Shown here: positions 37,828 to 61,812 of the stretch, piece after piece | Layout of the letters: each line of letters opens with the position of its first letter | Numbering within the stretch: position 1 is the first letter of the stretch | Source of the DNA: a bacterium | GTDB lineage: Bacteria > Bacteroidota > Ignavibacteria > UBA10030 | Direction: 5' to 3' | Assembly (NCBI GenBank): GCA_043803945.1 | Contig: JAZDJN010000038.1 | Coordinates: 1 to 64,000 of the forward strand | Length of the DNA stretch: 64,000 nucleotides | Notes under the pieces: generated by a model | Told to the model about the DNA's origin: nothing | The model's database searches: none | Seen by the model: only the letters and a program-made list of their open reading frames with translations | Made by a program: the position numbers and the translations under genes

Positions 37828-37838
37828 GGAGATGAACG

Positions 37839-44078: not shown

Positions 44079-44093
44079 TGCAAAGGGATCCTT

Positions 44094-45155: not shown

Positions 45156-45163
45156 AACCATTT

Positions 45164-45261: not shown

Positions 45262-45304
45262 TATTGTTGCTCAGTGAGTATTAGAGAAAGAAGACAAGAA
45301 AATT

Positions 45305-46372
45305 GTGAAAAGCGTACGAGCTGTTGTCGTTGGCTGTGGAACTATGGGTTCATCTCATGCTCGTGCGTATGCAGGAAATGAAGGATTTGAACTCGTTGGC
45401 CTTGTCGATCGCTCGGCAGAGAAAGCAGAATCCTTATCGAAGGAGTTGGGAAATGTTCCCGTGTTTCCTTCGCTGGATGAGGCAATCAAAGCAGCGCATC
45501 CGGATGCCGCTGCCATCTGTACGTATCCGGAAACGCATTTTGTATTGACCCATCAATCGATCATGGCAGGGCTCCATGTGTTTGTGGAAAAGCCAATCGC
45601 TGCAACGGTGCAGGAGGCAACTGCAATTGCCCGACTGGCTGCAGAAAAGAACAGGAAAGTAGTTGTGGGATACATTCTCCGGCATCACCCGGTGTGGCAG
45701 CGCTTCATCGAAGAGGCACGACAACTGGGCAAACCGCTCGTGATGAGAATGAATTTAAATCAGCAAAGCAGCGGCTCCGCATGGGAAGTCCATAAAAACC
45801 TCATGCGGTCCATGTCTCCCATTGTCGATTGCGGAGTCCACTATGTCGATGTCATGTGCCAGATGACGCGGTCACAGCCGGTTCGCGTGCAGGCAATCGG
45901 AGCGCGTTTGACGGAAGAGATCGATAATGCCATGTACAATTATGGACATCTCCATGTCGTCTTCGAAGATGGATCCGTCGGTTGGTATGAAGCCGGCTGG
46001 GGACCGATGATGAGCGAGGTTGCCTTCTTCGTCAAGGATGTCATCGGCCCTCGCGGGTGTGTGAGCATTGCCGAACGGCAGGCGGTACAAGGCGGTGACT
46101 CCTCAGACATCGATTCGCATACCAAGACCAGCAGTCTCGTCAAGCATGACGCTGCAACAATGCAGAATACACGAATCGATACCAGTGATGAGCCTGGCCA
46201 TCAGGAATTGTGCAACCGGGAGCAGATGCACTTTCTGCACGCCATCCAGGAGAATTTAGATCTCACCGACCATCTCAGCGATGCCGTGAATAGTCTGCGT
46301 ATCGTGCTTGCTGCCGATGAATCCGTACGAACAGGAACGATAGTCCATCTTACAGAACGAGGATCACTATGA
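45305..46372 (+). CDS. Gfo/Idh/MocA oxidoreductase (cytoplasmic)
   Basis: GCGTMG.SH, EKP, VGYILRHHP, DCGVHY. Confidence 0.9.
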   Translation: MKSVRAVVVGCGTMGSSHARAYAGNEGFELVGLVDRSAEKAESLSKELGNVPVFPSLDEAIKAAHPDAAAICTYPETHFVLTHQSIMAGLHVFVEKPIAATVQEATAIARLAAEKNRKVVVGYILRHHPVWQRFIEEARQLGKPLVMRMNLNQQSSGSAWEVHKNLMRSMSPIVDCGVHYVDVMCQMTRSQPVRVQAIGARLTEEIDNAMYNYGHLHVVFEDGSVGWYEAGWGPMMSEVAFFVKDVIGPRGCVSIAERQAVQGGDSSDIDSHTKTSSLVKHDAATMQNTRIDTSDEPGHQELCNREQMHFLHAIQENLDLTDHLSDAVNSLRIVLAADESVRTGTIVHLTERGSL

Positions 46373-47595: not shown

Positions 47596-47606
47596 AGAGG
47601 GTATCG

Positions 47607-48866: not shown

Positions 48867-48882
48867 GAGGAGAATACCAGCC

Positions 48883-51800
48883 ATGAAAAAAGTTGAATTC
48901 GGTGTTATTCTTCTCGTACTTGCGGCACTTCTTGCCGGGTGTGCATCAACAAAAATTGTTGAAACGGTTTCTCTCACTCCGGCAGCCCCTGTGTTCTCTC
49001 TCGACCAACTGCTGGCCAGAATGCCTGTCCGCGATTCTGTCGAAGCACGGTGGGTGTTCTCATCTATACTTCAGATGGGACAGGGGACAATTCATGAAGT
49101 CTGTCGTCGGCTTGGTCCGGCGGGATCCGAGCGAAACGCTCAGGTTGAATTTGCGCTCCAGGGCCTCGCCACGTTTGTCGCCACCCAGGGAATTGAATCC
49201 GACCGATTGCTCTTCGTCTCCGCAATCGACAGCGTGCTGAAATCCACCTTACCTGTTCAGCACGCTTCATTTCTCATTGCTCGCTTGCAGGTGGCAGGGG
49301 GAGAAGAGTCTATTGGCACGATGTCGCGCTATCTCGCCAATGATGATGTCTGTGAGCCGGCTGTTCAGGCGATGGTATCGATAAAAAAAGGTGCTGCTCT
49401 TCCAATAGTGAACGCGCTTCAGGGAGCAAACAAACACCGTCGGATTACACTGATGAAAGGCCTCGGTGAGTTGAGGGCGAGGGAAGCAGTCGAGCCGCTA
49501 CTCAAGGAGGCAGCATCAACGGACGATGATATCCGTCTGGCAGCTCTCTTTGCATTAGCGTCGATCGGTGATCCGCGTGCTGAAGATGTTCTGCTCAAGG
49601 CCTCCGAAAGTATCAAGCCGACAGAGAAGTTTGAGTCTACCTGGTTTCTGCTCACGTATGCCAAACGACAGGCCGATGCAGGAAATAAAACGAAGGCGCT
49701 TTCTCTCTGTAATGAATTGTTGACCCATCGAAGCACATTTGCAGAAAATCATTATCGTGCTGCAGCATTAGATCTGCTCACACAGATCAAAGGCGAGAAT
49801 GCGATCGAAAATCTGATAAAAGCAATGTCCGATTCAAGCAAACAGTTTCGAGTTACGGCCTTACGGCTGGCAGAAAAATTTCCAGGAGAGGCTTCCACAA
49901 ACAGATGGATTGCGGTTGCGCAGCAGTCTCAACCGATTGTGAAGGGTGAGATTATTGATATGCTCGGAAACCGGATTGAGAAGAGCGCGTATTCGATGAT
50001 ACTCAATGCTCTTCAGGACAACAATGGTGTTGTGCGCGAATCTGCAATTGAAGCGTTCTTTCGTCTCAAAGGAGCAGAATCCATCGGTTCGATTCTTACT
50101 GTGCTTCAGCGAAGCAAGGATACAAGCGATATCAAAGCCGTAAAGAGAGTGCTCGATCAAGTTCCTTCCGCACAAGCACTCCCACCGGTTCTCGAAGCTT
50201 TGCCGCGATTGACACCCCCGGCTGCTGTTATGATGCTGGATCTGCTTGGTAAATACGGTTCACTCGTGCCGGTGAATCCTGTCATGACGTTGAGCAAAAG
50301 TGAATCTCCTCAGGTACGTATCGCTGCGATGAAGGCGTTGGGGACTATTGCACAGGAAGGTGATCAGGGAAAATTGATAGCGATTATGCTTGGTGCGAAG
50401 GAAGAATCTGAACGATCGGCGGCGCAGAAAAGCCTTGTCACAGTGTGCTCAAGGATCGAAGATGCAGAACTACGATCGGCTAAAGTGCTCGAAGCGTTCA
50501 AGACTGGAACCCAGGATGATAAGATCACCTTACTCCGTACCCTTGGCCGCATGGGCGGCAGCAAAGCGATGGCTGTCGCTGCGGAAGAGTTGCGGAGCAA
50601 GAATTCAGAGATGCGCGATGCGGCTGTGCGCGCCCTCGCTGACTGGCCGAGCATCGATGCGTACGAAAATCTGCTTGGTGTTGCGAAGAGCAAAGAAAAA
50701 CTGAATCTTCGTGTTCTTGCCTTGCGCGGTTGTGTTCGGGTGGTGGAGAATGCGCCGATTAATCCCCCGATGGCAGTACAATATCACGAACAAACTCTCG
50801 CCGCGGCCGAGCGCATTGAAGAAAAACGCCTCGTCCTGGGTGCACTGGGACATCTTCGCCACCGCGAGGCATTACGGCTGGTCATTCCATTCATCGGAGA
50901 TGATTCCCTTGGGCTTGATGCTGCAATGGCTGCCGGAAAAATATCTACCGGAAAATCGGAGAAGAAAGATGAATTGGGATCGTCCGAAGTAGCACGCGCA
51001 TTTATCGAATCGAAGATTCCGGCAACCTTTAAAACTCAAGTCGCTCGTAACCTTGATGCGGCGTCTGGAATGAATGCACCGCCGAAGGGATTCACCGCGT
51101 TGTTCAATGGAAAAGACCTGAAAGGGTGGAAAGGGCTTGTTGCGAACCCGATTGCCCGCGCAGCAATGGACAAAGAGCAGCTCGCTGCGGCACAACTGAA
51201 GGCCGATTCCAGCATGAATGCCCATTGGTCGGTCGTTAATGGAGTACTCGTCTTTGATGGTAAAGGGGAAAGCCTCTGCACAAGCAAAGACTATGGCGAT
51301 TTTGAAATGCTTGTCGATTGGAAAATTGAAAAGCTCGGTGATAGCGGTATCTATCTGCGCGGATCTCCCCAGGTGCAAATTTGGGATCCCGCACAGTGGC
51401 CGGAAGGCTCGGGCGGTTTGTATAACAATCAGAAAAATCCGAATAAACCACTGAAGCGGGCCGACAAGCCAATTGGGGAGTGGAATACATTTCGTATTCA
51501 AATGGTCGGTGAACGCGTCACCGTTTACCTCAATGACATTCTGATCGTCGATAGTGTTATCATGGAAAATTATTGGGATAGAAAAATCCCCATCTTCGCA
51601 ACCGGACAGCTTGAACTGCAATCACATTCTAGTCCACTCTTCTTCCGCAATGTTTTCGTTCGTGAACTGCCGCAAAAGAAAACGTTGTTTTCCGGCAGCC
51701 TGTTTAATGGGACCGATTTGTCAGGATGGAAACTCATTGAAGGGAAAGAGGGAACCTGGGGTGTAAAGGATGGAATCCTCTTCACGATGGGTGAAGGCGG

Positions 51801-52278
51801 CGGTTGGCTTTCAACCGAGCGTGAGTTTGAGAATTTCCAACTCGACCTGGATTTCAAAGTACCCGATGGGGGGAACAGCGGAGTCTTCATCCGCTCGCCT
51901 CGACAGGGCGATCCGGCGTACACCGGGATGGAGATCCAAATTCTCGATGACTACGCACCCGTCTATGCGAAACTCAATGCCTGGCAGTACTGCGGGAGCC
52001 TTTATGGAGTACAGGCAGCTTCTCCCCGCGCGTCAAAAAAAGCCAATGAGTGGCAGCATATGCAGATTATTGCAGTGGGGCCTCGCGTAAAAGTCACCTT
52101 GAACAATCAACTCATTGTCGATGCAGACCTGATTGCGCATATGGATAAGGAATCGACTCATCCGGGTTTGAAACGACGAGCCGGCTATACTGGATTGCAG
52201 AGCCACACGCTTCGTGTTGAATATAAAAATATCATTGTGAAGGAACTTGAGTGGAAAGAAAGCAATGACGGAAATTGA
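48883..52278 (+). CDS. Lipoprotein with HEAT repeats and two DUF1080 domains
   Basis: Lipobox LAGC; HEAT region; two LFNG.DL.GW...SG...R...LQSH domains. Confidence 0.9.
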   Translation: MKKVEFGVILLVLAALLAGCASTKIVETVSLTPAAPVFSLDQLLARMPVRDSVEARWVFSSILQMGQGTIHEVCRRLGPAGSERNAQVEFALQGLATFVATQGIESDRLLFVSAIDSVLKSTLPVQHASFLIARLQVAGGEESIGTMSRYLANDDVCEPAVQAMVSIKKGAALPIVNALQGANKHRRITLMKGLGELRAREAVEPLLKEAASTDDDIRLAALFALASIGDPRAEDVLLKASESIKPTEKFESTWFLLTYAKRQADAGNKTKALSLCNELLTHRSTFAENHYRAAALDLLTQIKGENAIENLIKAMSDSSKQFRVTALRLAEKFPGEASTNRWIAVAQQSQPIVKGEIIDMLGNRIEKSAYSMILNALQDNNGVVRESAIEAFFRLKGAESIGSILTVLQRSKDTSDIKAVKRVLDQVPSAQALPPVLEALPRLTPPAAVMMLDLLGKYGSLVPVNPVMTLSKSESPQVRIAAMKALGTIAQEGDQGKLIAIMLGAKEESERSAAQKSLVTVCSRIEDAELRSAKVLEAFKTGTQDDKITLLRTLGRMGGSKAMAVAAEELRSKNSEMRDAAVRALADWPSIDAYENLLGVAKSKEKLNLRVLALRGCVRVVENAPINPPMAVQYHEQTLAAAERIEEKRLVLGALGHLRHREALRLVIPFIGDDSLGLDAAMAAGKISTGKSEKKDELGSSEVARAFIESKIPATFKTQVARNLDAASGMNAPPKGFTALFNGKDLKGWKGLVANPIARAAMDKEQLAAAQLKADSSMNAHWSVVNGVLVFDGKGESLCTSKDYGDFEMLVDWKIEKLGDSGIYLRGSPQVQIWDPAQWPEGSGGLYNNQKNPNKPLKRADKPIGEWNTFRIQMVGERVTVYLNDILIVDSVIMENYWDRKIPIFATGQLELQSHSSPLFFRNVFVRELPQKKTLFSGSLFNGTDLSGWKLIEGKEGTWGVKDGILFTMGEGGGWLSTEREFENFQLDLDFKVPDGGNSGVFIRSPRQGDPAYTGMEIQILDDYAPVYAKLNAWQYCGSLYGVQAASPRASKKANEWQHMQIIAVGPRVKVTLNNQLIVDADLIAHMDKESTHPGLKRRAGYTGLQSHTLRVEYKNIIVKELEWKESNDGN

Positions 52279-53605
52279 TCGAAGAAAATTCCTGCGCTAT
52301 ACGGCTGCAGCGGGAGCAGGCCTGCTTCTTGCGAACACACCAACGGAGGCATCAGATCCAGAACAACAATCGGCAGCCTCCGATGAGTTGAGAATTGCAT
52401 TGATTGGTGCGGGTGCGCAAGGGCAGGTGCTGATGAATGCGTGCCTTAAAATTCCCACTGTTCACTTTGCCGCAGTTTGCGATATCTGGGAAGCCTACAA
52501 CCTTCGCCGCGCACAGCGCATGCTCGATAAGTTCGGACAAAAGGTCAATGCGTATATCGATTACCGGCAGATGCTTGCCATGGAGAAGGGGCTGAATGCG
52601 GTATTGATTGCAACTCCCGATTTCTGGCACGCTCAACAAACGGTGGATTCTCTTCAAGCAGGGCTGCATGTCTATTGTGAAAAAGAAATGTCGAATACAC
52701 TCGAAGGTGCCCGTCGCATGGTGCGCGCGGCAAGGCAAACCGGAAAGCTCCTTCAAATCGGGCACCAGCGCAGAAGCAATCCGCGATATCTTCATTGCTA
52801 TAAGAAACTCATCAAAGAAGCAAAAGTCCTTGGGCGTATCACTACGGTGAACGGACAATGGAATCGTTCATTTCAACCTGATAACGGCTGGCCAAAAGGG
52901 GCGGGCATCGAGACAGCACGTCTGAATGAATTTGGATTTCGATCGATGGAAGAATTCAGAAACTGGCGATGGTACCGCCATCTCGGCGGCGGGCCGGTGG
53001 TCGATCTTGGCTCTCACCAACTCGATATCTACAACTGGTTCCTCGATGCGCTGCCGAAATCAGTCGCGGCCAGCGGCGGCATCGATTACTATGACCCTAA
53101 AACCCATCAATGGTATGATGGTGTGCTCGCCACCTTCGAGTATGAAACGCGCAAAGGAAAGATCAGGGCATTCTATCAAACCATTTCCACCAATAGCAAC
53201 CAGGGGTACTACGAAAGCTTTATGGGAGATCAGGGAACATTGGTGATCTCCGAATCGGGAAGCCGCGGTGCGGCTTATCGTGAACCGGCTGCACCGGAAT
53301 GGGATAAATGGGTGTCGCTCGGTTTTCTGAAAGCGCCTACCGGTGATCAGAAAAAACCTCAAGCCGAGGCAACGCTCGATGTTCGTGAAACGATTATTCC
53401 TCCTTCGTTCGAAGTGCCGGTGAAGTTCGACGATCCCTATCATAAACCTCATCTTGAAAATTTCTTCAACGCAGTCCGTGGTAAAGAGAAACTGAACTGC
53501 CCGGCGGAAATCGGCTACGAAACGGCCGTCACAGTCTTGAAGGTAAATGAAGCGGTAGAAACCGGAACGAAGCTCATCTTCAATCCACAGGAGTTCAAGG
53601 CCTGA
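52265..53605 (+). CDS. Tat-exported Gfo/Idh/MocA oxidoreductase
   Basis: DRRKFL; IGAGAQG, TPDFWH, CEKEM, QIGHQRRS, DLGSHQ. Confidence 0.9.
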   Translation: MTEIDRRKFLRYTAAAGAGLLLANTPTEASDPEQQSAASDELRIALIGAGAQGQVLMNACLKIPTVHFAAVCDIWEAYNLRRAQRMLDKFGQKVNAYIDYRQMLAMEKGLNAVLIATPDFWHAQQTVDSLQAGLHVYCEKEMSNTLEGARRMVRAARQTGKLLQIGHQRRSNPRYLHCYKKLIKEAKVLGRITTVNGQWNRSFQPDNGWPKGAGIETARLNEFGFRSMEEFRNWRWYRHLGGGPVVDLGSHQLDIYNWFLDALPKSVAASGGIDYYDPKTHQWYDGVLATFEYETRKGKIRAFYQTISTNSNQGYYESFMGDQGTLVISESGSRGAAYREPAAPEWDKWVSLGFLKAPTGDQKKPQAEATLDVRETIIPPSFEVPVKFDDPYHKPHLENFFNAVRGKEKLNCPAEIGYETAVTVLKVNEAVETGTKLIFNPQEFKA

Positions 53606-53608
53606 CTT

Positions 53609-55495
53609 ATGTTTCCATCGAAGAAGATAATCCTCTTAGCCGCGGCTTTCCTTGGTTGTGCATGTTCACTGTTTGCTCAGGCGCAATCGACTATTGGAGA
53701 TGTTGCTGATGGTAATCGCTCAATCCCGAATCATCTGATCAAGCTCTATGACGAGTTCGACCATGTGATCAAAATGGATGAACTGCCGGCCATGCCATTC
53801 TCCTCAAAACAAACTTGCGGAAAATGTCATGACTACGAAAAGATAAAACGGGGATGGCATTTCAATGCGGCAGATTCCGGGATTCAATCTGGACGAACAG
53901 GAGAACCTTGGATTCTCGTTGATCGCATGGCGGCAACACAGATTCCACTCTCCTATAGAGGATGGAAAGGAACGTATCAACCCGGTTCTCTCGGATTATC
54001 GACCTTTAAATTTCTTTCCATCTTTGGACGGCATCTTCCCGGAGGTGGAATAGGAGAGAATGAGCAGGCTCAGGATTTGAACGACTACATGCGCTGGCAG
54101 GTCTCCGGTACTCTCGATGTCAATTGCCAGAGCTGTCATAATGCAGATCCGGCACAAAGCCAGGCGGAGTACGGTGTTCAGGTGTTACGTCAGAATTTCC
54201 GGTGGGCTGCCGCAGCGAGCAGCGGGTTGACTACCATGCAAGGTGCAGCGGTCGACATGCCAGACAACTATGATCTCTATTCTGCCGTACCGCCTGAGCG
54301 ATCAAATTTTCTTCCGCCAACCATTCACTATACCAAGTCCCGATTTGACATTTCCGGAAAAACTCTTTTTAACGTGCCACGAAAGATGCCCGCAACACAA
54401 TGTTCGTTCTGCCATTCAGACAAAGTTATCGTCCCTGAGCAGCCTGATCGATGGGAACATGATGAAGATGTTCACATTGCTGCCGGTATGACCTGTATGG
54501 ATTGCCATCGAAACGGAATTGACCACCAGATGATTCGGGGTTATGAAGGTGAAGCGAAATTGATACAAAAACCGGGAGCCGCAGTATTTACATGCAAGGG
54601 ATGCCATTTAGGCACGAACGACGTACCGGTACCGAGAGAAGGAAAACGCGGTGCTCCCCGGCCGCAGCATCTGGGTATTCCACCCGTGCATTTCGAAAGA
54701 CTTTCCTGCACAGCTTGCCACTCGGGCCCATGGCCTGGCGACGACACTTATCGGGTGAAGACTTCCAGAGCTCACGCGTTGGGAATACCTAAGGCGGACA
54801 AGTCGGATGATGCACTGCCGCAGATTCAAACTCCGGTCTATGCCCAGGGGGAAGATGGAATCTATGCACCTCATAATATTTTCTGGCCGGCATTCTGGGC
54901 ATACAAAAATCAACATACTGTTCTCCCAATTACGCCAACGCTTGTCCAGCCATTGATTGCTGAATTGTTCAAGAAGGATACGACACGGATTCTTGGCCGA
55001 TGGCCGCAGTTGCGTAACGAAGATATTAATGCAATCCTCGGATCACTGCGGGAGATGGATTCAACTGCAGGTGTACCCGTCTATATCAGCGGCGGCACAC
55101 TATTCCGCGTTGGAACGAGTGGTGCGTTGGAAACTCAGGATGATGGGGCAGCGAAGCCGTACCTCTGGCCGATTGCCCACGATGTTCGGCCGAAAGCTCA
55201 ATCACTGGGGATCCGCGGCTGCGGCGACTGTCATGCAACGGATGCACCGTTCCATTTCGGATCCGTGTCAGTGAGCTCTCCCTACGTTACGATGAGGGAT
55301 TCCGTCACAAGCATGACAGATTATCAGAACAAGAGTTCTTTCTCTGCCTGGCTTTTTTCGATTTCCTTTCTCTTCCGGCCCGGACTTAAATTGCTCATCA
55401 TTATCTCTTTTGTTCTTCTCGCATCTGTGGTGTTGATCTATGCAATGCGCGGACTGGCACAAATCATCAGAACACTTGCAGAGGAGGGTGAATGA
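53609..55495 (+). CDS. Multiheme c-type cytochrome (7 CxxCH) with C-terminal membrane anchor
   Basis: CGKCH, CQSCH, CSFCH, CMDCH, CKGCH, CTACH, CGDCH; signal peptide; C-terminal TM helix. Confidence 0.88.
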   Translation: MFPSKKIILLAAAFLGCACSLFAQAQSTIGDVADGNRSIPNHLIKLYDEFDHVIKMDELPAMPFSSKQTCGKCHDYEKIKRGWHFNAADSGIQSGRTGEPWILVDRMAATQIPLSYRGWKGTYQPGSLGLSTFKFLSIFGRHLPGGGIGENEQAQDLNDYMRWQVSGTLDVNCQSCHNADPAQSQAEYGVQVLRQNFRWAAAASSGLTTMQGAAVDMPDNYDLYSAVPPERSNFLPPTIHYTKSRFDISGKTLFNVPRKMPATQCSFCHSDKVIVPEQPDRWEHDEDVHIAAGMTCMDCHRNGIDHQMIRGYEGEAKLIQKPGAAVFTCKGCHLGTNDVPVPREGKRGAPRPQHLGIPPVHFERLSCTACHSGPWPGDDTYRVKTSRAHALGIPKADKSDDALPQIQTPVYAQGEDGIYAPHNIFWPAFWAYKNQHTVLPITPTLVQPLIAELFKKDTTRILGRWPQLRNEDINAILGSLREMDSTAGVPVYISGGTLFRVGTSGALETQDDGAAKPYLWPIAHDVRPKAQSLGIRGCGDCHATDAPFHFGSVSVSSPYVTMRDSVTSMTDYQNKSSFSAWLFSISFLFRPGLKLLIIISFVLLASVVLIYAMRGLAQIIRTLAEEGE

Positions 55496-56148
55496 CACTC
55501 TTTCGCATCCTCTCCGGACTGACAATTCTTCTCCTCCTCGCTGGAATAACCTACGATCTCAAGCGCAGGTTGAAGGTTTGGAAGACAGTGAGATCGTCTT
55601 GCCATCAACAGATTTTTGCCGCCTTCAACGTATTCAAAGAAGCCAGGCAATCTCCTCAAGGGAATATTCTCGCGATTATCAAACGGGCAATATCTATCCT
55701 CACCGTACTATGTGCTCTCATTCTCGCATTTACCGGATTCTTTCCGGTCACAATCCTCGGTACTCATCTTACGGGTATCCTTCTGGTAATCCATGTAACC
55801 ATTGCTCCATTGTTTGCCCTTTGTCTTTGCGCCGTTGCATTACTCTGGGCGCATAAACTCAGGTTCATACAAGAGGATTGGACTGTATTCCGGAATATCA
55901 TCAAGCATCAATCTATTACTGAAGAGCGGTTGGCGCGTTTCTTTCACAAGCTGGCTTTCTGGATCATTCTAGTGCTTTCCCTTCCGCTGATCCTGACTGT
56001 TATCCTCGAGCTTTTCCCACTGTTTGGCACTGAAGGGGAAGAATTTCTCATAAGTCTTCATGGCTATTCTGCACTCTTCCTTGCACTGGTCGGTTTGATT
56101 CATACGTATTTGGCGATTATGTTTTTGAATAATTCCCGCGAACATTAA
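55492..56148 (+). CDS. Membrane cytochrome b-like protein (FdnI/hydrogenase cyt b-like)
   Basis: Several TM helices with His pairs (IHVT...WAH; LHGY...LIHT); ATGA coupling to the cytochrome c. Confidence 0.65.
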   Translation: MTLFRILSGLTILLLLAGITYDLKRRLKVWKTVRSSCHQQIFAAFNVFKEARQSPQGNILAIIKRAISILTVLCALILAFTGFFPVTILGTHLTGILLVIHVTIAPLFALCLCAVALLWAHKLRFIQEDWTVFRNIIKHQSITEERLARFFHKLAFWIILVLSLPLILTVILELFPLFGTEGEEFLISLHGYSALFLALVGLIHTYLAIMFLNNSREH

Positions 56149-56155
56149 TGAAGGA

Positions 56156-56974
56156 GTGACAAACTTGAAACAATTATTTAAAACAACGATCTGGATTCTT
56201 CTATTCGGTACTCTATTGATTGGAGCTTGCCAAAAATCGCCTGAGCAAAATAATCAGCAAAGCAGTACGCAGCAGCAAACTGCCGGACAGACGCGGGAAT
56301 CATCGCAGCAGCAGCCGGCAGGTCAACCTTCGGAACAACCGCAACAGGTATCAGGTGACGCCCAATCCGCAAGCCAACAACTGGTTCCTCTGGAGATCAA
56401 ACTTCCGAAGCCGATGTTCGTCGGAACCCCGACAAACGTCGCGGTGCCAAATCTTGAGAAGCCGCTGGGAAAACCGCGTCCTCCATTTCTCGCTCCGGCT
56501 GGTACGAAAAATATTGCATTTAAAAAACCGGTGAGTGGATCTGATGAGCAGCCGATTATCGGAGAACTCTCTCTCATCACCGATGGTGACAAGGAGGCAG
56601 CGGAAGGCAGCTATGTGGAGCTTGGGCCAAAGCTCCAGTACGTTACGATCGATTTGAAATCGCGGAATACCATCTATGCCATCCTGGTATGGCACTTCCA
56701 CAAGCAGGCGGTCGTGTACAATGATGTGATCGTCCAGGTTGCCGACGATCCCGATTTCATCTCGAACGTTCAAACGATCTTCAACAACGATATCGATAAT
56801 TCCGCTGGAAGAGGTGTCGGGAAAGAGATGAGCTATATCGAAACTTCGGAAGGCAAGCTTATCGATGCGCGGGGAGTGCAGGGCCGTTATGTCAGACTGT
56901 TCAGCCGCGGAAATTCCGCCAACGAATTGAATCACTACATCGAAGTTGAGGTCTACGGCAAGGCGGTTCAATGA
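56156..56974 (+). CDS. Lipoprotein with Gln/Ser-rich linker and discoidin/F5-8-like domain
   Basis: Lipobox IGAC; Q-rich stretch; NIAFKKPV, ITDGD, IDL, RYVRL, EVEVYG. Confidence 0.75.
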   Translation: MTNLKQLFKTTIWILLFGTLLIGACQKSPEQNNQQSSTQQQTAGQTRESSQQQPAGQPSEQPQQVSGDAQSASQQLVPLEIKLPKPMFVGTPTNVAVPNLEKPLGKPRPPFLAPAGTKNIAFKKPVSGSDEQPIIGELSLITDGDKEAAEGSYVELGPKLQYVTIDLKSRNTIYAILVWHFHKQAVVYNDVIVQVADDPDFISNVQTIFNNDIDNSAGRGVGKEMSYIETSEGKLIDARGVQGRYVRLFSRGNSANELNHYIEVEVYGKAVQ

Positions 56975-58539
56975 GATGGTATTTCTGGATTGTTGGTGCC
57001 GTCATTGTGGTGGGCGCACTCCTGCGCCTGCCGCAATTGGAATTGAAGCCGATGCACACCGACGAAGCTGTCCATGCCATAAAGTTCGGTACCTTGCTTG
57101 AACGCGGAATCTACCGCTACGATAAAGACGAATATCACGGCCCAACGCTAAATTATTTGACCCTTGTTCCCGCCTGGGTTCTCTCTCAAAAAAAAATCTC
57201 AGAGGTAACTGAGACAACTCTCCGTATCATTCCGGCTCTCTTCGGTTTGGGCATTGTAATTCTTCTCGCTCTCATGCATGATCTCGGTCCAAAGCCCATG
57301 GCATTTGCCGCACTGCTTACAGCGGTATCGCCCGCGATGGTATACTATAGCCGGTACTATATCCAGGAAATGCTTCTCGTCTGTGCCTCATTGGCTTTGA
57401 TCTTCGCTGGGTATCGGCTCCTCACTCAGAAAAAAATAATCTGGGCTGTATTGACAGGCGTTAGTGTTGGTTTTATGGCTGCCACAAAGGAGACATGGCT
57501 TCTGTTCTGTGGTGCAATGGTCCTGGCTCTCGTTGGTACCTGGTTGCTCCGTCGTCGTGAAGGAGAAATCTCGCATCCGATCAGTTTTTGGAATCTGAGT
57601 ATTATGGTTCTCTCTGCTGCCGCAGTGATTGTATTATTCTTCTCTTCATTCTTTTCCCATTGGCAGGGTATCAAAGATTTTCTGCTCGCCTATCAAACGT
57701 ACTTTGGCCGTGCAGTTCAGAATATAAGACACAACCATCCCTGGTACTACTTTTTCCAGATCCTGCTCTGGTCGAAGGGGGAATCCGGCCCTCTCTGGAC
57801 GGAAGCAGCAATTATCATTTTCGGACTGTCTGGTATCTGGCATGCATTCAGGCAGAGATCAAATCCTCCAATCGAAGCAAGATGGTTCTGGCTTTTCCTT
57901 GGATTGTATGCCTTGTCGATGCTCGCGATTTCTTCTGCCATTCCCTATAAAACACCATGGTTGGTTGTTGGTACGTTGCTTCCATTTATTATGATGGCTG
58001 GGTATGGACTTTCAATATTCTTCGCCTGGCTTCAGCAGAAACAAGTACAGCTTCTCGCAATCCTGATTATTACGCTCATCACGGGCCACCTTGGCTGGCA
58101 GGCGTATCAATCAAGCTATCGGTATTATGACGATCCGGTAAATCCTTATGTCTATTCTCATCCAACGCAAGATGTCCTTCTCATTTCAACAAGTGTCATT
58201 GAAGCGGCACTCCATACTCCTGAAGGATTATCGACACCTGTTCAGGTGGTCTTTCCGGAAGATGAGTACTGGCCGCTCCCCTGGTATCTTCGCTCAATGA
58301 AAAATGTGGGGTGGTGGAATAACGTCGACTCCGATGTTACTCCAACAAGCATCATGGTCATCACTCCAGAGTTGGAGAATGACCTGCTTGAGAAAATCTA
58401 CAATCAGCCTTCGCGGGGAAGAAGCTCGCTGTATGTTCCCTTATTCGATCGATCGTTGTACCTGCGTCCGGGGAAAGAGGTACGGGGGTATGTTACTCTG
58501 GATCTCTGGAACTCAATCCATAAGGCTCCAGTGCAATGA
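56971..58539 (+). CDS. TIGR03663/Agl23-like GT-C (PMT-like) membrane protein
   Basis: LRL..L..KPMHTDEAVH, YHGP, YYSRYYIQE, ATKE, YKTPW, YWPLPWYLR. Confidence 0.8.
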   Translation: MRWYFWIVGAVIVVGALLRLPQLELKPMHTDEAVHAIKFGTLLERGIYRYDKDEYHGPTLNYLTLVPAWVLSQKKISEVTETTLRIIPALFGLGIVILLALMHDLGPKPMAFAALLTAVSPAMVYYSRYYIQEMLLVCASLALIFAGYRLLTQKKIIWAVLTGVSVGFMAATKETWLLFCGAMVLALVGTWLLRRREGEISHPISFWNLSIMVLSAAAVIVLFFSSFFSHWQGIKDFLLAYQTYFGRAVQNIRHNHPWYYFFQILLWSKGESGPLWTEAAIIIFGLSGIWHAFRQRSNPPIEARWFWLFLGLYALSMLAISSAIPYKTPWLVVGTLLPFIMMAGYGLSIFFAWLQQKQVQLLAILIITLITGHLGWQAYQSSYRYYDDPVNPYVYSHPTQDVLLISTSVIEAALHTPEGLSTPVQVVFPEDEYWPLPWYLRSMKNVGWWNNVDSDVTPTSIMVITPELENDLLEKIYNQPSRGRSSLYVPLFDRSLYLRPGKEVRGYVTLDLWNSIHKAPVQ

Positions 58540-59474
58540 CGGGCAGGATCAATCTCTCAGGCAAAGATGTCTGTCGCTTTGAGCATCAAGCAATGGCAAC
58601 ACTCTTTGAAGTGATGATTGCCTGCGAAGATCCAGTCTATGCTCAGTCTGCGGCGGTTGAAGCGTTCCAGGAAATCGATCGGCTCGAATTGGAATTAAGT
58701 CGATACAATCCGAATAGCGATATCTCCCGGTTGAACAACCTCTCTCCACATTCATCTATTCGCATTGGGTACGATGCCTTTCAATGTTTATTGGAAAGCA
58801 TCCGGTATGCAGAGCTCACAGGCGGAGCGTTCGATGTGACAGTGGGGAGATTAATGGATTGCTGGATTGCCAGGGATAAATCGGCACGAAATCCTTCGAT
58901 CCAGGAAATTGAAGAGGCATTGGCGAGTTGTGGGAGAACGTTGCTGGAGTTAGATGAAGCTTCGATGATGGTTCGCACTGGTGCAGTCGTTCCATGCATC
59001 GACCTTGGTGCCATTGGGAAAGGCTACGCTGTCGATTGTGTTATAGAGTTGCTGAAAGAATGGGAAATCGGATCGGCACTGGTTCACGGAGGGATGAGTT
59101 CGGTTTTTGCATTTGGTGAATATCAGCATCAGAATGGCTGGCCCGTCACACTGAGCGATCCGCGCACTCCTGACACGATCCTGCGAACAGTTACTCTGGA
59201 TGAACGAGCCTTGGGTGGTTCCGGTGTGAAGAAAGGATTCCATATCATCGATCCACGGTCTGGTCAACCGGTCAGGCATCGCCACGCCGCGTGGGTTGTT
59301 GCGGATTCTGCAACTCAAAGTGATGCGTTATCGACTGCCTGCATGATGATGACGAAAACGGAGATTGAACAACTTGTTCTTCAGCAGCCTCACAATTGGG
59401 CAATGATTGTTGATGAACCGTCGAATCACCACTCCTATTCTGTCTTTCAATATGGAAGTAGTTTATCGGTTTGA
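58536..59474 (+). CDS. apbE: FAD:protein FMN transferase, no signal peptide
   Basis: AMAT, LSRY...SDI..LN, GAFDVTVG, DLGAIGKGYAVD, HIIDPRSG, DALSTA. Confidence 0.9.
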   Translation: MTGRINLSGKDVCRFEHQAMATLFEVMIACEDPVYAQSAAVEAFQEIDRLELELSRYNPNSDISRLNNLSPHSSIRIGYDAFQCLLESIRYAELTGGAFDVTVGRLMDCWIARDKSARNPSIQEIEEALASCGRTLLELDEASMMVRTGAVVPCIDLGAIGKGYAVDCVIELLKEWEIGSALVHGGMSSVFAFGEYQHQNGWPVTLSDPRTPDTILRTVTLDERALGGSGVKKGFHIIDPRSGQPVRHRHAAWVVADSATQSDALSTACMMMTKTEIEQLVLQQPHNWAMIVDEPSNHHSYSVFQYGSSLSV

Positions 59475-60185
59475 GAAGAGCTTCTTGATCAGGAACAATT
59501 CATGGAGAACATCTGTCAAGCTTCGGCGAAGGCTGATCCGGCTGTCGCGATCACAGCTCCACTCCACAGGGAATTCCTCAATCCGGTAACTAAGCCGTAT
59601 TGCTCGAAGGACAATTTCTACATCGAAAAGAAAACCCTCTATTGTGCACTCTCCAAATAACCTCCGTGCTACTTCACCACGATAAATTTTGAATCCGCAC
59701 TGTGTATCGGTAAGATGGATAGGAACTTTCAGCCAGCGAATGACGAGGATGTGAAAGAGCCTTGATATCAATTTCCGATCCCAATCCTGTTTTTTGTGAA
59801 TCACGCTAGCCGGCAGCTTTCTTGAGCCATGGGCAATCTCACATCGGTTATCCTCAAGAAGTTGAAGGCCTGCAAGTGCATTGGAATATGGGACCGTCAA
59901 TCCGCTGTCTGCGAACATCACGAAGTCGCCATGCGAAGCGATCATTCCAGAGCGAACAGCAAATCCCTTTCCTCGATGTGCTTCGTTTCGGATTACTCGA
60001 CAGGTACTACCCGCAGGGAGTGCAGCCTGCCTAGCCTCCAGTGCAGTGTTATCCGAACTTCCGTCATCGACAACGATTACTTCACCAGAGAGTTCGTGAC
60101 CAGCAAGAAATCCTGCGGCCTCTTGAACATCACGGGCGATTTTTTTTTCCTCATCGAATGCAGGTATGATAATAGAGAGCGTCAT
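59463..60185 (-). CDS. GT2 polyprenyl/dolichyl-phosphate sugar synthase-like glycosyltransferase
   Basis: SIIIPAF.EE, VDDGS.D, RGKGFAVR.G, DTQCGFK, FDVE. Confidence 0.9.
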   Translation of the reverse strand: MTLSIIIPAFDEEKKIARDVQEAAGFLAGHELSGEVIVVDDGSSDNTALEARQAALPAGSTCRVIRNEAHRGKGFAVRSGMIASHGDFVMFADSGLTVPYSNALAGLQLLEDNRCEIAHGSRKLPASVIHKKQDWDRKLISRLFHILVIRWLKVPIHLTDTQCGFKIYRGEVARRLFGECTIEGFLFDVEIVLRAIRLSYRIEEFPVEWSCDRDSRISLRRSLTDVLHELFLIKKLFSNR

Positions 60186-60630
60186 CAGTTGGCAAGGTAC
60201 TGACGATCCGCAGTCTCTGCAAGTGAAAAAAGAGGCGGCGGAAAGAATAAATCTGTTCCCTTAACAATTCATCATTATTTACAATCAGACTCCGTCATCA
60301 GATGTTTTTCAAAAAAAATACTGTCACACCCGAACATTTTTGTTGGGTGTCTTGCATTGAGATTTTCCAATTTAGAGATTCCCTGCCTGCCGAAGTTGCT
60401 TCGGCATGGAGACTCACAGGAAAAACCGAGGAAAACGCGTTGAAGGTATCGCAGCAACTAAACCGGTACATTACTTAATTTGCCAATATGCTCTGGGCAT
60501 CCTTAGATACGGCTGAAGACTGCGAGGTGATGGATCTGCAGTTTAAATCGGATCCCCTAGTGGTTCTCTTCCCCGTCGAAAAGGAGTTTGAAAAACGAGG
60601 GTTTTAAAGGTAAACTTCAAAAAAAAGTGC

Positions 60631-60659
60631 TTGACTTGCGGTGCAAAAATAACTAAAAT
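60631..60659 (+). promoter_or_regulatory. Sigma70-type promoter upstream of the TA triplet
   Basis: TTGACT-17 bp-TAAAAT. Confidence 0.6.
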
Positions 60660-60765
60660 TTAAACGTGGCTTTAGTTCCTCATTGTGCAACTTATTCATT
60701 CCATTAAGCGTTCCATTTTAGAAGGTCAAGGAACGTCCAAAATATAGATATCCCGGTGATTCAAT

Positions 60766-61173
60766 ATGTTTGTTAGATACGCATTTCTTGCTGACACAGC
60801 TACAGCGGACGCTGGTGGCAAATTATATGCTATGGGGATTTTTGATAATATACTGACCACCCAATTCCCTGCTCATCATCCCGAATTAACACTCGTAGCC
60901 AGAATTGAGGGAACTGTTGCAGAGAAGGGATCACATAAAATATCTATTGAATTGCGAGATAGCGATTCAAATAGACTTCATTCGTTCGATCAAACATTAG
61001 TTTTTAGCGAACGACCAGCAGTCCATGGGAATTTCTTGGCAGGATTAATTGTGAAATTCCAAACTCTAACTTTCCCACGAGCCGGCCAATATGAGTTCGT
61101 TCTTTTTGGGGACGATCGATTTCTAGTGCGAATTCATTTTACGGTGCAGAAAATTAACATCCAAAATGATTAA
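60766..61173 (+). CDS. DUF6941-like hypothetical beta-sandwich protein
   Basis: AFLAD.A....GKLY.MGIFD.I....FP; FP..G.Y.F. Confidence 0.7.
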   Translation: MFVRYAFLADTATADAGGKLYAMGIFDNILTTQFPAHHPELTLVARIEGTVAEKGSHKISIELRDSDSNRLHSFDQTLVFSERPAVHGNFLAGLIVKFQTLTFPRAGQYEFVLFGDDRFLVRIHFTVQKINIQND

Positions 61174-61175
61174 GT

Positions 61176-61466
61176 ATGAATGGGAGTTCCGCAAAAAAGT
61201 TGTTAGAAAGGATGCGAAACTCAAAGTCTGGGTGGGGTCAAAGTGACTTTCTTCATTTACTTAAAGGATTCGGATTTAAATTTAGAGAAGGTAGTAAGCA
61301 CACAGTTTATTTTCATCCTACATTTAACGATTTGATGATCAGCGTACCTAGGCATAACATTTTAAAGGAATGGGTAGCGCGCGATGCAATAAAACTAATT
61401 GATGAATTAATAGAACGATTGGAGAAAGAAGGGAAGAACAATGGAATCGATGGCAAGAACACTTGA
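61176..61466 (+). CDS. hicA: HicA-family mRNA interferase toxin
   Basis: LL..FGF..REGSKH..Y.HP......VPRH. Confidence 0.85.
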   Translation: MNGSSAKKLLERMRNSKSGWGQSDFLHLLKGFGFKFREGSKHTVYFHPTFNDLMISVPRHNILKEWVARDAIKLIDELIERLEKEGKNNGIDGKNT

Positions 61467-61812
61467 GTACTACAGGCGTCTACCATATAGGATGCAGATA
61501 GATCGAGTGCAAGATTCCGATGGAAGTAAATATTGGACAGCCGAATATATTGAACTCCGTGGTTGTAAGGCAGATGGGCCCACAGAACTCGATGCAATAT
61601 CAAATCTGCACGAGGTGTTTGATGAGTATATTTTAACGCAAATTGAAAACGGTATCAGCACACCTGAACCTGCGCAGGTTCCACTCATTGTTGATTCCAT
61701 CTGGCTAAAACCGTGGAAAGAAACATCTTTTCTAATGCCTACACCTCCTGGAGTAGATACCGATAAAACAGGGAGTGAAGCAGCAATTGAGTCTGTTTAC
61801 GCTCCGTTTTAA
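61441..61812 (+). CDS. hicB: HicB-family antitoxin lacking a recognisable DNA-binding domain
   Basis: YY..LPY, ELRGC.ADG.T..DA..NL, PEP; overlaps hicA. Confidence 0.82.
   Translation: MESMARTLEYYRRLPYRMQIDRVQDSDGSKYWTAEYIELRGCKADGPTELDAISNLHEVFDEYILTQIENGISTPEPAQVPLIVDSIWLKPWKETSFLMPTPPGVDTDKTGSEAAIESVYAPF

Follow-up and report, generated by a model that had tools for sequence, protein, structure and literature searches.

The window, the 64,000 nt stretch of DNA analyzed here, carries six codirectional genes on its plus strand between 52265 and 59474. They encode, in order, a Gfo/Idh/MocA dehydrogenase (Gfo), a cytochrome c, a five-transmembrane (5-TM) protein, a discoidin-like lipoprotein, an Agl23-family protein, and an ApbE-family flavin transferase. 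From Gfo to ApbE, the junctions are a 3 nt gap, a 4 nt overlap, a 7 nt gap, and two further 4 nt overlaps. The linkage by overlaps or gaps below 10 nt described in an earlier sequence-only reading of this DNA therefore holds at every junction. The unit extends upstream of Gfo, where the gene for a lipoprotein with HEAT repeats and two DUF1080 (3-keto-disaccharide hydrolase) domains (48883 to 52278, plus strand; PF06439, 304.5 bits in two stretches) runs 14 nt into the Gfo gene. Additional Gfo, MFS, TIM-barrel, and DUF1080 genes are present in the upstream region from 36655 onward. On the minus strand, a GT2 glycosyltransferase gene of the polyprenyl-phosphate hexose synthase type (Agl22/Dpm1/ArnC-like; 59463 to 60185; PF00535, 62.2 bits) runs toward ApbE, overlaps its end by 12 nt, and belongs to the conserved set. 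The sequence-only reading had overlooked the upstream extension and the convergent GT2, as well as the missing signal peptide of ApbE and the missing [S/T]GA[S/T] motif.

Gfo (gfoTat; 52265 to 53605, plus strand) has its ATG at 52265, and the longest frame begins at 52247. Its twin-arginine signal scored 19.8 bits with TIGR01409 (cut-off 16.7), and matches to PF01408 (65.3 bits) and PF02894 (57.9 bits) identified it as the Tat-exported dehydrogenase that had been proposed. Gfo orthologs across loci are 58–84% identical. Among 29 orthologs with a mean column identity of 71%, residues G48, G50, G53, D73, K140, D247, and H251 were invariant.

The cytochrome c gene (53609 to 55495, plus strand) encodes a cleavable N-terminal signal, one C-terminal TM helix as anchor, and seven CxxCH motifs at residues 70, 173, 265, 296, 329, 367, and 538, as read earlier. 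All seven motifs and H42, H84, H289, H306, H354, and H361 were invariant in 46 sequences, and H524 was at least 90% conserved. The family comprises 344 representative clusters at E ≤ 1e-30. The structural model (pLDDT 88.4) had no PDB match at E ≤ 0.001, and this cytochrome is a new family. Predicting its complex with Gfo, a check that the sequence-only reading had suggested, gave a score of 0.61 (0.60, 0.63, and 0.61 in individual runs) compared with 0.00 for the best of three controls; partner pLDDT was at least 88, and the runs shared at least 80% of contacts. The score mark was reached by 116 of 157 solved pairs and 2 of 215 mismatched pairs, counts that are only approximate here because we supplied our own alignments. 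The predicted interface includes Gfo residue 248, beside the catalytic D247 and H251. This modeling supports binding of Gfo to the cytochrome c.

The 5-TM protein (55492 to 56148, plus strand) is a cytochrome b-like subunit, distantly similar to FdnI and HyaC, as indicated by its His pair, fold match, and fusions. Its PF01292 score of 23.9 bits falls under the cut-off of 30.1, and its best fold match was FdnI (1kqf_C; TM 0.49/0.50, Z 9.8 over 157 residues). The His pair on which the sequence-only reading had relied is retained, with H101 conserved in 88 and H190 in 91 of 92 sequences. The positive-inside rule places these residues at the ends of TM3 and TM5 that face the periplasm. Further histidines are less conserved (H121 in 32/92, H204 in 57/92). 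In this alignment, only one heme site, on the periplasmic side, is universally conserved, so transmembrane, electrogenic transfer is not general.

The cytochrome c module arrangement was found again in 89 loci with cytochrome identities of 40–71%, which come from related lineages and are not independent samples; the context counts cover cytochromes down to about 40% identity. This recurrence places the arrangement far beyond chance. A Gfo ortholog lies directly upstream of the cytochrome c in 70 of 72 informative loci. One of the two remaining loci has a paralogue in between (L073), leaving L086 as the sole true exception. In the reverse search, Gfo orthologs occurred in 7 of 401 genomes of the class, with the cytochrome directly downstream in 8/8 loci. 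The cytochrome pair is therefore usually found with Gfo; the opposite outcome would have counted against the sequence-only reading. Cytochrome b follows cytochrome c in 75 of 78 loci, and two of the three misses (L077 and L081) have a canonical PF01292 protein in the slot (59.9 and 48.9 bits). Among 150 representatives of the cytochrome c family, 34 carry the module cytochrome b in the same protein. Together, the synteny, the c–b fusions, the conserved His pair, and the predicted interface uphold the view that Gfo, the heptaheme cytochrome c, and the membrane protein belong together as a conserved unit. Same-class genomes retain the gene set with rearranged flanking genes. A DUF1080 gene is present within 700 bp upstream of the Gfo ortholog in 44 of 52 informative loci, and transporters and a cytoplasmic Gfo gene are inserted in many loci. 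We found no description of this module in print.

The downstream genes form a second sub-module. The lipoprotein (56156 to 56974, plus strand; GTG start) has a lipobox (LIGAC), a low-complexity linker, and a discoidin (F5/8 type C)-like domain. PF22633 scored 17.2 bits, under the cut-off of 27.8; the earlier assignment is borne out by the lipobox, a match to the CBM32 chain 4a3z (E 1.2e-4), and atlas neighbors that are F5/8 type C clusters (score 0.98). Orthologs, 53–84% identical, were found in 51 of 57 loci. The next gene (56971 to 58539, plus strand) had been called a GT-C protein. It is indeed a polytopic membrane protein with a PMT_2-like N-terminus (PF13231, 33.8 bits), but it is better named Agl23-family, given 185.5 bits with TIGR03663 (cut-off 126.25). 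It was found in 47/53 loci and the convergent GT2 ortholog in 31/41. Motifs are conserved in the Agl23-family protein, including DE and HGP, and in ApbE. The GT2 has weak NCBIfam matches to PpgS, AglJ, ArnC, and dolichyl-phosphate hexose transferase, and it forms with the Agl23-family protein a polyprenyl-phosphate-hexose synthase/flippase-like couple. This couple has no explanation in the model of the sequence-only reading. Across loci, ApbE always travels together with the discoidin, Agl23, and GT2 genes, and this whole set is absent within 10 kb of the core in 6/57 loci.

The ApbE gene (58536 to 59474, plus strand) was correctly identified, with a PF02424 score of 184.6 bits (cut-off 25.6) and conserved catalytic-type motifs. 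Its frame is maximal, so no signal peptide can lie upstream, and all 37 N-terminally complete orthologs, like the window copy, lack a signal peptide and have a hydrophilic N-terminus. It is the only ApbE copy in its genome (G000, 100% complete), and searches there found no FMN_bind, DUF2271, or NqrB/RnfD (the control of the DUF3570 search matched nowhere). Genomes G053 and G643 likewise have a single ApbE and no FMN_bind, the substrate family searched in them. The [S/T]GA[S/T] flavinylation motif is in no module protein and conserved in none of the families, and FMN-binding domains are likewise missing from all module proteins. Tat-Gfo genes flank a second clade of signal-less ApbEs in 5/5 loci, which have no Agl23, GT2, or discoidin gene. 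Ten clusters are fusions of ApbE, a twin-arginine signal, and Gfo, with the full RRxF/L signal between the domains in all; one of these is 61% identical to the window's Gfo. The flavin bridge proposed earlier thus stood in part. ApbE is tied to Tat-Gfo by the second cluster type and the fusions, whereas the signal-less ApbE and the lack of an FMN domain or motif speak against the form proposed.

Herein, we consider it probable that the core of the module is a periplasmic dehydrogenase with three subunits arranged as in FdnGHI/HyaABC, passing electrons from Gfo through the seven-heme cytochrome c and cytochrome b to quinone, with ApbE placing a flavin on Gfo. Gene order, conservation, fusions, ligand conservation, and the predicted interface are the basis of this proposal. 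From it we infer the substrate, cofactors, direction of flow, quinone reduction, and flavinylation. The Tat-exported Gfo, with bound NAD(P), would oxidize a periplasmic sugar or glycoside. Because of the DUF1080 neighbors, its product is probably a keto-glycoside, which these proteins would cleave. Gfo would dock on the membrane-anchored cytochrome c, whose seven hemes would be bis-His-ligated, and electrons would pass to heme b on the invariant His pair at the periplasmic side of the small FdnI-like membrane protein, and then to the quinone pool and the cell's oxidases. Three heme-copper oxidase matches in G000 provide the respiratory context. We know of no precedent for an NAD-type dehydrogenase passing electrons straight to heme, and splitting the two-electron hydride of NAD(P)H into one-electron steps probably requires a flavin. 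The signal-less ApbE most likely attaches it to Gfo before or around Tat export, at a noncanonical site. The discoidin lipoprotein, Agl23-like protein, and GT2, traveling with the core, may provide hexose on a lipid carrier at the outer face, used either in glycosylation or to anchor one of the module's components. The gene set may explain how exported NAD-type sugar dehydrogenases pass electrons to the respiratory chain.

A challenge to this assignment of ApbE comes from its other fusions. In 38 clusters (35 by Pfam, plus P0280, P0284, and P0305 by blastp), the Agl23-like protein and ApbE make up a single fusion protein, and the closest longer relatives of the window ApbE are fusions to the C-terminus of this protein. 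A crude profile gave 11 hydrophobic segments, placing that end outside the cell, which conflicts with a cytoplasmic ApbE and indicates the Agl23-like protein as the partner instead. One further fusion is with GT2 and two are with GH29/discoidin domains. These fusions, and the constant movement of ApbE with the discoidin, Agl23, and GT2 genes, would fit an ApbE that serves one of these three, attaching FMN to a protein or even to a sugar hydroxyl, with an indirect link to Gfo. The ApbE-RR-Gfo fusions in 10 clusters and the separate ApbE clade between Tat-Gfo genes argue against this, and we regard it as doubtful, though with an appreciable chance. In another reading, of envelope biosynthesis rather than catabolism, GT2 would make a polyprenyl-phosphate hexose, the Agl23-like protein would flip it, and Gfo would oxidize the lipid-linked sugar at the outer face, much as DprE1 oxidizes decaprenyl-phospho-ribose, with the cytochromes as sink. 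This would give every gene a role and accommodate the conservation of GT2 (31/41) and the Agl23-family protein (47/53); Haloarcula Agl22/Agl23 make and handle hexose-P-dolichol, according to the accessible text of PMC11182771. The core, however, remains associated with DUF1080 hydrolases (44/52), with sugar transporters, and with genes for cytoplasmic Gfo proteins, and in 6/57 loci it has no second sub-module close by. The second ApbE-Gfo cluster type carries no GT2 or Agl23 gene. Such envelope biosynthesis, whose product would modify the discoidin lipoprotein or the envelope, is improbable.

The fate of the electrons is also open to other interpretations. The cytochromes might accept them from Gfo without delivering them to quinone, the b-type protein acting as a membrane dock or the hemes feeding soluble cytochromes, an oxidase, or external acceptors. 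Universal conservation of the periplasm-side heme site alone, the lack of an identifiable quinone site, and a genome rich in c-type cytochromes, with cytochrome c oxidases, are compatible with this. We nevertheless find it unlikely, since the fold and the sub-threshold Pfam match indicate the quinone-reactive FdnI/HyaC family and two loci have canonical PF01292 proteins in place of the b-type one. Flow could also run in reverse, with cytochromes b and c as a quinol oxidase feeding menaquinol electrons to Gfo, which would then act as a reductase that resets NAD(P)+ to NAD(P)H or reduces keto-sugars. CbcBA, with the same layout (seven-heme c with a C-terminal TM helix and 4-TM cytochrome b), works as a quinol oxidase in the available account (10.1101/2021.04.15.440034). 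The genome holds large multiheme clusters typical of electron export, and the sequence contains nothing that fixes direction. The menaquinol couple (about −75 mV), however, is much more positive than NAD(P) (about −320 mV) and also more positive than ketone/alcohol couples. Reverse flow would therefore be uphill, and DUF1080 hydrolases, transporters, and cytoplasmic Gfo reductases require an oxidizing first step; we give it a slim chance.

The proposed dehydrogenase most resembles FdnGHI and HyaABC, which likewise combine a catalytic subunit exported by Tat, a subunit that carries electrons and has a single C-terminal TM helix, and a small cytochrome b. By fold, the module b subunit matched FdnI (1kqf_C) and HyaC (4gd3_A) best. 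They differ in having a Mo/W or NiFe catalytic subunit instead of a nicotinamide-type Gfo/Idh/MocA protein, and Fe–S clusters instead of seven c-type hemes as the wire. The module b subunit, in turn, has 5 TM helices, a PF01292 score below the cut-off, and one universal heme site. Among sugar oxidoreductases, we take Zymomonas glucose-fructose oxidoreductase to be a close known system together with the BT2158 pathway. The window Gfo was rejected as a BT2158 ortholog, with NF058561 giving 92 bits against a cut-off of 750 and matching the N-terminal half only. The Bacteroides thetaiotaomicron BT2156–BT2159 pathway of the glycoside 3-dehydrogenase BT2158, as presented in the accessible text of Liu et al. 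2021 (PMC8121099), contains a Tat-exported Gfo, DUF1080 3-keto-glycoside hydrolases, TIM-barrel, and further Gfo proteins, all of which occur in the window. In that account, the route proposed for regenerating the bound NAD(P) of BT2158 is reduction of another sugar, and no cytochrome partner is described (PMC8121099).

Geobacter sulfurreducens CbcBA is similar in its described layout: the accessible account of Joshi et al. 2021 (10.1101/2021.04.15.440034) describes seven-heme CbcA with a C-terminal TM anchor next to diheme CbcB, a small FdnI/hydrogenase-type b protein. The same account presents CbcBA as a menaquinol oxidase for extracellular acceptors without a dehydrogenase partner, and places the fourth heme-b His in the CbcA anchor, whereas the module cytochrome anchor has no His. 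Known ApbEs share the full-length domain and conserved motifs, as far as the accessible texts of 10.1101/2021.01.07.425746 and PMC12052999 describe them. Klebsiella and trypanosomatid fumarate reductases provide examples of cytosolic ApbEs and of ApbE joined to the protein it modifies (PMC12052999, accessible text), and clusters without a signal peptide were left out by Meheust et al. 2021, according to the available part of that paper (10.1101/2021.01.07.425746). Unlike these systems, the module ApbE is signal-less, its neighbors carry no [S/T]GA[S/T], genome searches gave no FMN_bind, DUF2271, or NqrB/RnfD substrate, and its partners are Tat-exported Gfo proteins and the Agl23-like membrane protein. 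The module's Agl23-family protein, which passes the TIGR03663 (Agl23) cut-off and is paired with a polyprenyl-phosphate hexose synthase-type GT2, resembles Haloarcula hispanica Agl22/Agl23 (Lu et al. 2020, as cited in the accessible text of PMC11182771) in this pairing, but it is bacterial, belongs to a redox/catabolic operon, and commonly occurs as a fusion with ApbE.

The six genes occupied the positions claimed for them in the sequence-only reading, all as forward-strand open reading frames: the Tat-signal Gfo/Idh/MocA enzyme (Gfo, 52265-53605), the heptahaem cytochrome c (53609-55495), a five-TM cytochrome b-like protein (55492-56148), a discoidin-like lipoprotein (56156-56974), an Agl23-like protein (56971-58539) and ApbE (58536-59474). 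Successive junctions were a 3 nt gap, a 4 nt overlap, a 7 nt gap and two 4 nt overlaps. The unit was larger than that reading had given, with a HEAT/2xDUF1080 lipoprotein gene overlapping the start of Gfo by 14 nt. A minus-strand GT2 gene converged with ApbE and overlapped it by 12 nt. Gfo, MFS, xylose-isomerase-like TIM-barrel and DUF1080 genes filled 36655-52278, and a promoter and terminator scan of 44000-61000 gave no signal above shuffled sequences. A look-up of sequencing runs over 52265-59474 listed none, and no holder of RNA data either. The stretch at 36655-45155 formed a further 3-keto-glycoside-type set, comprising Gfo, a xylose-isomerase-like TIM barrel, two C2-type Gfo genes, an 848-aa HEAT-repeat protein and a DUF1080 protein. 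At 60766-61812, a DUF6941 gene was followed by genes for a HicA-like toxin and a UPF0150 (HicB-like) protein, with a GC content of about 0.40-0.43 against 0.48-0.52 in the module.

Conservation of the unit was assessed in 89 loci: six from species genomes, three from same-order or same-class genomes and 80 from metagenomes, the last being the best 80 of 533 confirmed matches. These loci represent related lineages rather than independent samples. A Gfo orthologue (at least 50% identity) lay directly upstream of the cytochrome in 70 of 72 informative loci. In one exception (L073), a Gfo paralogue intervened and the orthologue was one gene further; the other (L086) had none. The 5-TM protein followed the cytochrome in 75/78 loci (exceptions L063, L077 and L081). 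The discoidin gene was present within 10 kb downstream in 51/57 and the Agl23-like gene in 47/53, both with exceptions L033, L050, L051, L057, L080 and L086. ApbE was found in 39/44 (exceptions L033, L050, L051, L057 and L086), the convergent GT2 in 31/41 (exceptions L026, L033, L050, L051, L053, L057, L069, L086, L088 and L092) and a DUF1080 gene upstream of Gfo in 44/52. Median identities across loci were 64% for Gfo, 67% for the discoidin protein, 55% for GT2, 48% for ApbE, 47% for cytochrome c, 44% for the Agl23-like protein and 40% for cytochrome b. Same-class genomes kept the set with rearranged flanks, and in many loci the cytochrome b and discoidin genes were separated by an MFS or other permease and a cytoplasmic Gfo.

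The cytochrome was rare: of 401 genomes sampled across the phylum, 4 carried it. Gfo orthologues (E ≤ 1e-90) occurred in 7 of 401 genomes of the class. With Gfo as the query, the cytochrome lay directly downstream in 8/8 loci. The cytochrome pair is therefore not usually found without Gfo; neither partner occurred without the other in the genomes searched, and L086 was the sole exception among metagenome loci. The forward counts and this reverse test rule out chance adjacency. The exceptional locus (L086:5926-12588) had the cytochrome c/b pair with no Gfo, discoidin, Agl23-like or ApbE gene nearby, and upstream of it were an MFS_2 sugar transporter and a GH130 mannoside phosphorylase. One genome (G687) had two copies of the DUF1080-Gfo-cytochrome stretch, L100 on contig C10 and L105 on contig C13. 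One copy had a TGA inside Gfo and the other apparent frame breaks, which could reflect misassembly or a duplicate in decay.

Bacteroidota and their related groups very commonly encode Tat-exported Gfo/Idh/MocA enzymes, which carry out the first step in a 3-keto-glycoside pathway of glycan degradation that has only recently been recognised. Their bound NAD(P)H has to be reoxidised in the periplasm, where no free NAD pool exists. Family membership is defined by an N-terminal Rossmann domain with GxGxxG and a C-terminal alpha/beta domain, with a catalytic Lys (EKP-type) and Asp-x3-His. The window's Gfo matched PF01408 (65.3 bits, cut-off 24) and PF02894 (57.9 bits, cut-off 22.9). Residues G48/G50/G53 (dinucleotide-binding), D73, E139-K140, D247 and H251 were invariant in 29 orthologues, the catalytic Lys, Asp and His among them. 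Its Tat signal scored 19.8 with TIGR01409 (cut-off 16.7), and the RR was kept in the orthologues listed. PDB relatives aligned over the Rossmann half only. Orthology to the glycoside 3-dehydrogenase BT2158 was rejected, since NF058561 gave 92 bits against an equivalog cut-off of 750 and matched residues 5-255 only.

Complex prediction with mature Gfo (residues 36-446) and soluble cytochrome c (residues 25-585) returned an interface. The score was 0.61 (runs 0.60, 0.63 and 0.61), with the best of three controls at 0.00. Neither partner had a pLDDT below 88, and the runs shared 80% or more of their contacts. Of solved complexes, 116 of 157 attain this score mark, as do 2 of 215 mismatched pairs; the counts hold only roughly here because the alignments were self-supplied. 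The predicted interface comprised Gfo residues 51-58, 86-90, 201-213, 232, 248, 311-315, 330-331 and 392, of which 248 adjoins the catalytic D247/H251. On the cytochrome side, it comprised residues 50-60, 157-161 and 219-233, close in sequence to the first two haem motifs. The model supports, rather than demonstrates, binding of Gfo to cytochrome c.

Cytochrome c had exactly the seven CxxCH motifs ascribed to it, with an N-terminal signal and a single C-terminal TM helix. Across 46 diverse family members, the seven motifs and six further His were invariant and one more His nearly so. A multihaem cytochrome c is an exported protein with several CxxCH, each of which is paired with a distal ligand, and the seven extra conserved His are enough for seven bis-His haems. 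The protein therefore resembles a wire more than it does a catalytic cytochrome. Its family comprised 344 representative clusters at E ≤ 1e-30 and, among scored candidates, over 2500 proteins at E ≤ 1e-5. This family has no name, and named members were all "hypothetical" except two with automatic tetrahaem labels; the module defines a large unstudied multihaem cytochrome family. The structural model was confident (pLDDT 88.4, pTM 0.87). Foldseek with this model found no solved relative at E ≤ 0.001, the best being 1sp3 (E 0.099, TM 0.20/0.27), and a profile search against the PDB gave only a local NrfA match at positions 287-335 (E 4e-6).

In 34 of the 150 best cytochrome c family representatives, a C-terminal extension was homologous to the window's 5-TM protein (blastp E 9e-29 to 6e-4); judged by these sequences, cytochromes c and b are one unit. 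The paired His that had been noted in the membrane protein held up, with H101 present in 88/92 and H190 in 91/92 homologues. Other His were not near-invariant (H204 57/92, H92 46/92 and H121 32/92). By the positive-inside rule, the H101/H190 pair would lie at the periplasmic ends of TM3 and TM5, and H121/H204, both present in the window's copy, would lie near the cytoplasmic ends. Cytochromes b of the FdnI/HyaC type are four-helix bundles with His ligands for two haems b and two His 14 residues apart in the last helix; H190 and H204 are spaced 14 residues apart. With the AlphaFold model (pLDDT 80.4), the best Foldseek match was FdnI (1kqf_C, E 0.11, TM 0.49/0.50), followed by HyaC. An exhaustive aligner placed FdnI at Z 9.8 and rmsd 4.3 over 157 residues, a level that helical bundles can also attain by chance. 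Its other top rows were helical hairpins only, which Foldseek and VIA also mostly returned. The likeness to FdnI is suggestive and not proof. The PF01292 score (23.9 bits, E 4.1e-5) fell below the gathering cut-off of 30.1. Two loci (L077 and L081) had a canonical PF01292 cytochrome b in the slot after the cytochrome (48.9 and 59.9 bits), and this non-orthologous replacement supports the function of that slot.

A GT-C assignment calls for a Pfam match, an acidic motif in the first outer loop and shown transferase activity. The protein previously called "GT-C" matched PF13231 (GT-C, PMT_2; 33.8 bits against 26.1, residues 66-207) with a conserved DE dipeptide. It also passed the Agl23 model TIGR03663 (185.5 bits against 126.25, residues 8-444), whose characterised member is described as a flippase. 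A PDB sequence search with this protein gave no match at E ≤ 1. The GT2 was of the polyprenyl-phosphate hexose synthase type by weak NCBIfam matches. One study (PMC11182771) describes Haloarcula hispanica Agl23 as a flippase for hexose-P-dolichol, involves Agl22 with Agl23 in the synthesis and utilisation of lipid-linked intermediates and reports that purified Agl23 moved a lipid-linked glycan in liposomes. By this precedent, the GT2/Agl23-like pair probably places polyprenyl-phosphate hexose at the outer face. The discoidin assignment of the lipoprotein stood in part. PF22633 scored 17.2 bits, under its cut-off of 27.8, but the domain matched the CBM32 PDB chain 4a3z (E 1.2e-4), and Atlas neighbours were F5/8 type C clusters (feature score 0.98, structure TM 0.72-0.78). 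With its Gln/Ser/Thr/Pro-rich linker, we would guess at a glycosylation target or a sugar-binding subunit.

ApbE was a clear family member, with PF02424 at 184.6 bits (cut-off 25.6) and DLGxIGKGY, HIIDPRT and ADALSTA-type motifs conserved in 38 sequences. The classical arrangement, in which a secretion signal or lipobox accompanies a substrate with an FMN_bind, DUF2271, DUF3570 or NqrB/RnfD domain and an [S/T]GA[S/T] site, was not seen. No signal peptide occurred in the window's copy or in 37/37 N-terminally complete orthologues, whose N-termini were hydrophilic; the window's frame was not extendable and started 20 residues before the domain. ApbE was single-copy in the genome holding the window (100% complete), where searches gave no FMN_bind (PF04205), DUF2271 (PF10029) or NqrB/RnfD (PF03116) match; the DUF3570 (PF12094) search matched nothing, its control included. 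The regular expression [ST]G[AS][ST] gave only sporadic, non-conserved matches over all module proteins and orthologue sets. An SGAS in the upstream Tat-Gfo (47607-48866) was rejected as a flavinylation site because it was not conserved. S250 was Ser in the module Gfo family and in a Gfo of a second cluster (described below), not in other Gfo paralogues, and offers no more than a lead to a candidate flavinylation site. Among five module-bearing relatives, G053 and G643 had one ApbE and G105 and G652 two, all four without FMN_bind, and G385 had three FMN_bind matches, one of them some 4 kb away from its second ApbE (3636098-3636925).

The second ApbE of G105 likewise lacked a signal and lay between two Tat-signal Gfo genes, beside a DUF1080 gene. 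This second cluster (L106:8144-13041, contig C6) encoded, in order, a DUF1080 protein, a C2-type Tat-Gfo, the signal-less ApbE and a Tat-Gfo about 30% identical to that of the module. Orthologues of this ApbE (41-71% identity) occurred in G652, G620, G639 and G648, with Gfo on both sides in 5/5 loci including that of G105. All upstream Gfo of the cluster had the twin-arginine motif but one (L110, cut at the locus end), and no cytochrome, Agl23-like or discoidin gene was present in these clusters (L106 and L108-L111). Other ApbEs of the class (24-32% identity) mostly had twin-arginine or Sec signals and no Gfo neighbour among the loci listed. A quick IQ-TREE analysis separated module (36), second-cluster (5) and signal-bearing (18) ApbEs with 98-100% SH-aLRT; being an unrooted tree of three groups, it is silent on a common origin of the two signal-less clades. 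The tree omitted fragments under 280 aa (two L006 pieces) and, out of the 30 loci compared for ApbEs of the class, module copies L114, L129 and L135, the long forms L118, L124 and L130, and L131 (no ORF match).

Among the 120 listed of 146 longer ApbE homologues, 38 clusters were Agl23-like-ApbE fusions (35 by Pfam; P0280, P0284 and P0305 by blastp), 10 were ApbE-Gfo, one was GT2-ApbE, two were GH29/discoidin-ApbE and one was GH9-ApbE, with FMN_bind-ApbE making up most of the remainder. In 10/10 ApbE-Gfo fusions (P0309, P0310, P0312, P0315, P0317, P0320, P0321, P0326, P0332 and P0358), the ApbE domain came first without a signal, and a complete RRxF/L with an Ala-rich hydrophobic stretch lay between the domains. 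This layout implies a Tat signal predicted to act from inside a polypeptide. The fusion P0326 was 61% identical to the module Gfo. According to a review (PMC12052999), fusions of ApbE to its own target are known. The orthologue clusters, the fusions and this precedent together tie signal-less ApbEs to Tat-exported Gfo and, relative to the Tat signal, put ApbE on the cytoplasmic side. Meheust et al. 2021 (10.1101/2021.01.07.425746) left signal-less ApbE clusters out. Three fusion proteins (P0307, P0313 and P0316) were secreted and carried, ahead of a C-terminal ApbE domain, either a GH29 fucosidase with discoidin domains or a GH9 domain.

The proposed mechanism builds on the conserved gene unit, the fusions, the haem ligands, the predicted Gfo:cytochrome interface, the link of the orphan ApbE to Tat-Gfo and a respiratory chain in the genome, which had three COX1-family matches and 13 ORFs with at least three CxxCH. 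Haem-rich ORF clusters of this genome (C3:32723-49744 and C61:64150-129642, with 19, 14, 13, 13, 11, 9, 8, 8 and 8 CxxCH) suggest extracellular or other multihaem electron transfer in the organism. As in the sugar:quinone oxidoreductase originally envisaged, a periplasmic sugar or glycoside would be oxidised by Gfo-bound NAD(P), and a flavin would convert two-electron to one-electron steps. Electrons would then pass through seven haems c and the periplasm-side haem b to quinone, and the transfer would be transmembrane (electrogenic) only in proteins with the second His pair.

It is possible, though we consider it rather unlikely, that this Gfo clade is a new ApbE substrate class: while the folded enzyme is still on the cytoplasmic side of its Tat signal, a signal-less ApbE would put covalent FMN on it, using a site different from [S/T]GA[S/T], and the exported enzyme with NAD(P) and FMN would feed the seven-haem wire. 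In a bolder variant, the Agl23-like/GT2/ApbE trio would build a lipid- or glycan-linked flavin as mediator. Among relatives of the window's ApbE, the nearest are joined to the C-terminus of an Agl23-like protein, and a crude hydropathy and positive-inside profile gave 11 hydrophobic segments for the latter. This number suggests that the C-terminus lies outside, which conflicts with a cytoplasmic ApbE, but such a profile does not settle the side. The two placements would be reconciled if a folded Tat substrate were modified either before or after export.

For respiring bacteria, the module offers a concrete, testable answer to the reoxidation of Gfo NAD(P)H, namely a haem wire of its own leading to the membrane, through which the oxidation of sugars in the periplasm would yield energy. 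It probably defines a new kind of ApbE substrate, and it points to a link of flavin transfer with a family of flippases for lipid-linked sugars to which ApbE is often fused. If true, FMN on Gfo would make this the first respiratory sugar dehydrogenase of a nicotinamide-flavin-multihaem kind and would account in general for the reoxidation of periplasmic NAD-type enzymes. Liu et al. 2021 (PMC8121099) call the acceptor of BT2158 unknown and propose that it is another sugar, so far unidentified. Our literature search combining Gfo or glycoside 3-dehydrogenase with periplasmic or multihaem cytochromes, thin in coverage for subscription journals, found no paper joining a Gfo enzyme to a cytochrome partner. 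Among known systems, the Zymomonas GFOR, a Tat-exported nicotinoprotein, shares the Tat signal with the window's Gfo, and that type is also defined by tightly bound, non-dissociating NAD(P). The cytochrome c/b pair resembles the Geobacter CbcBA bc cytochromes in architecture only.
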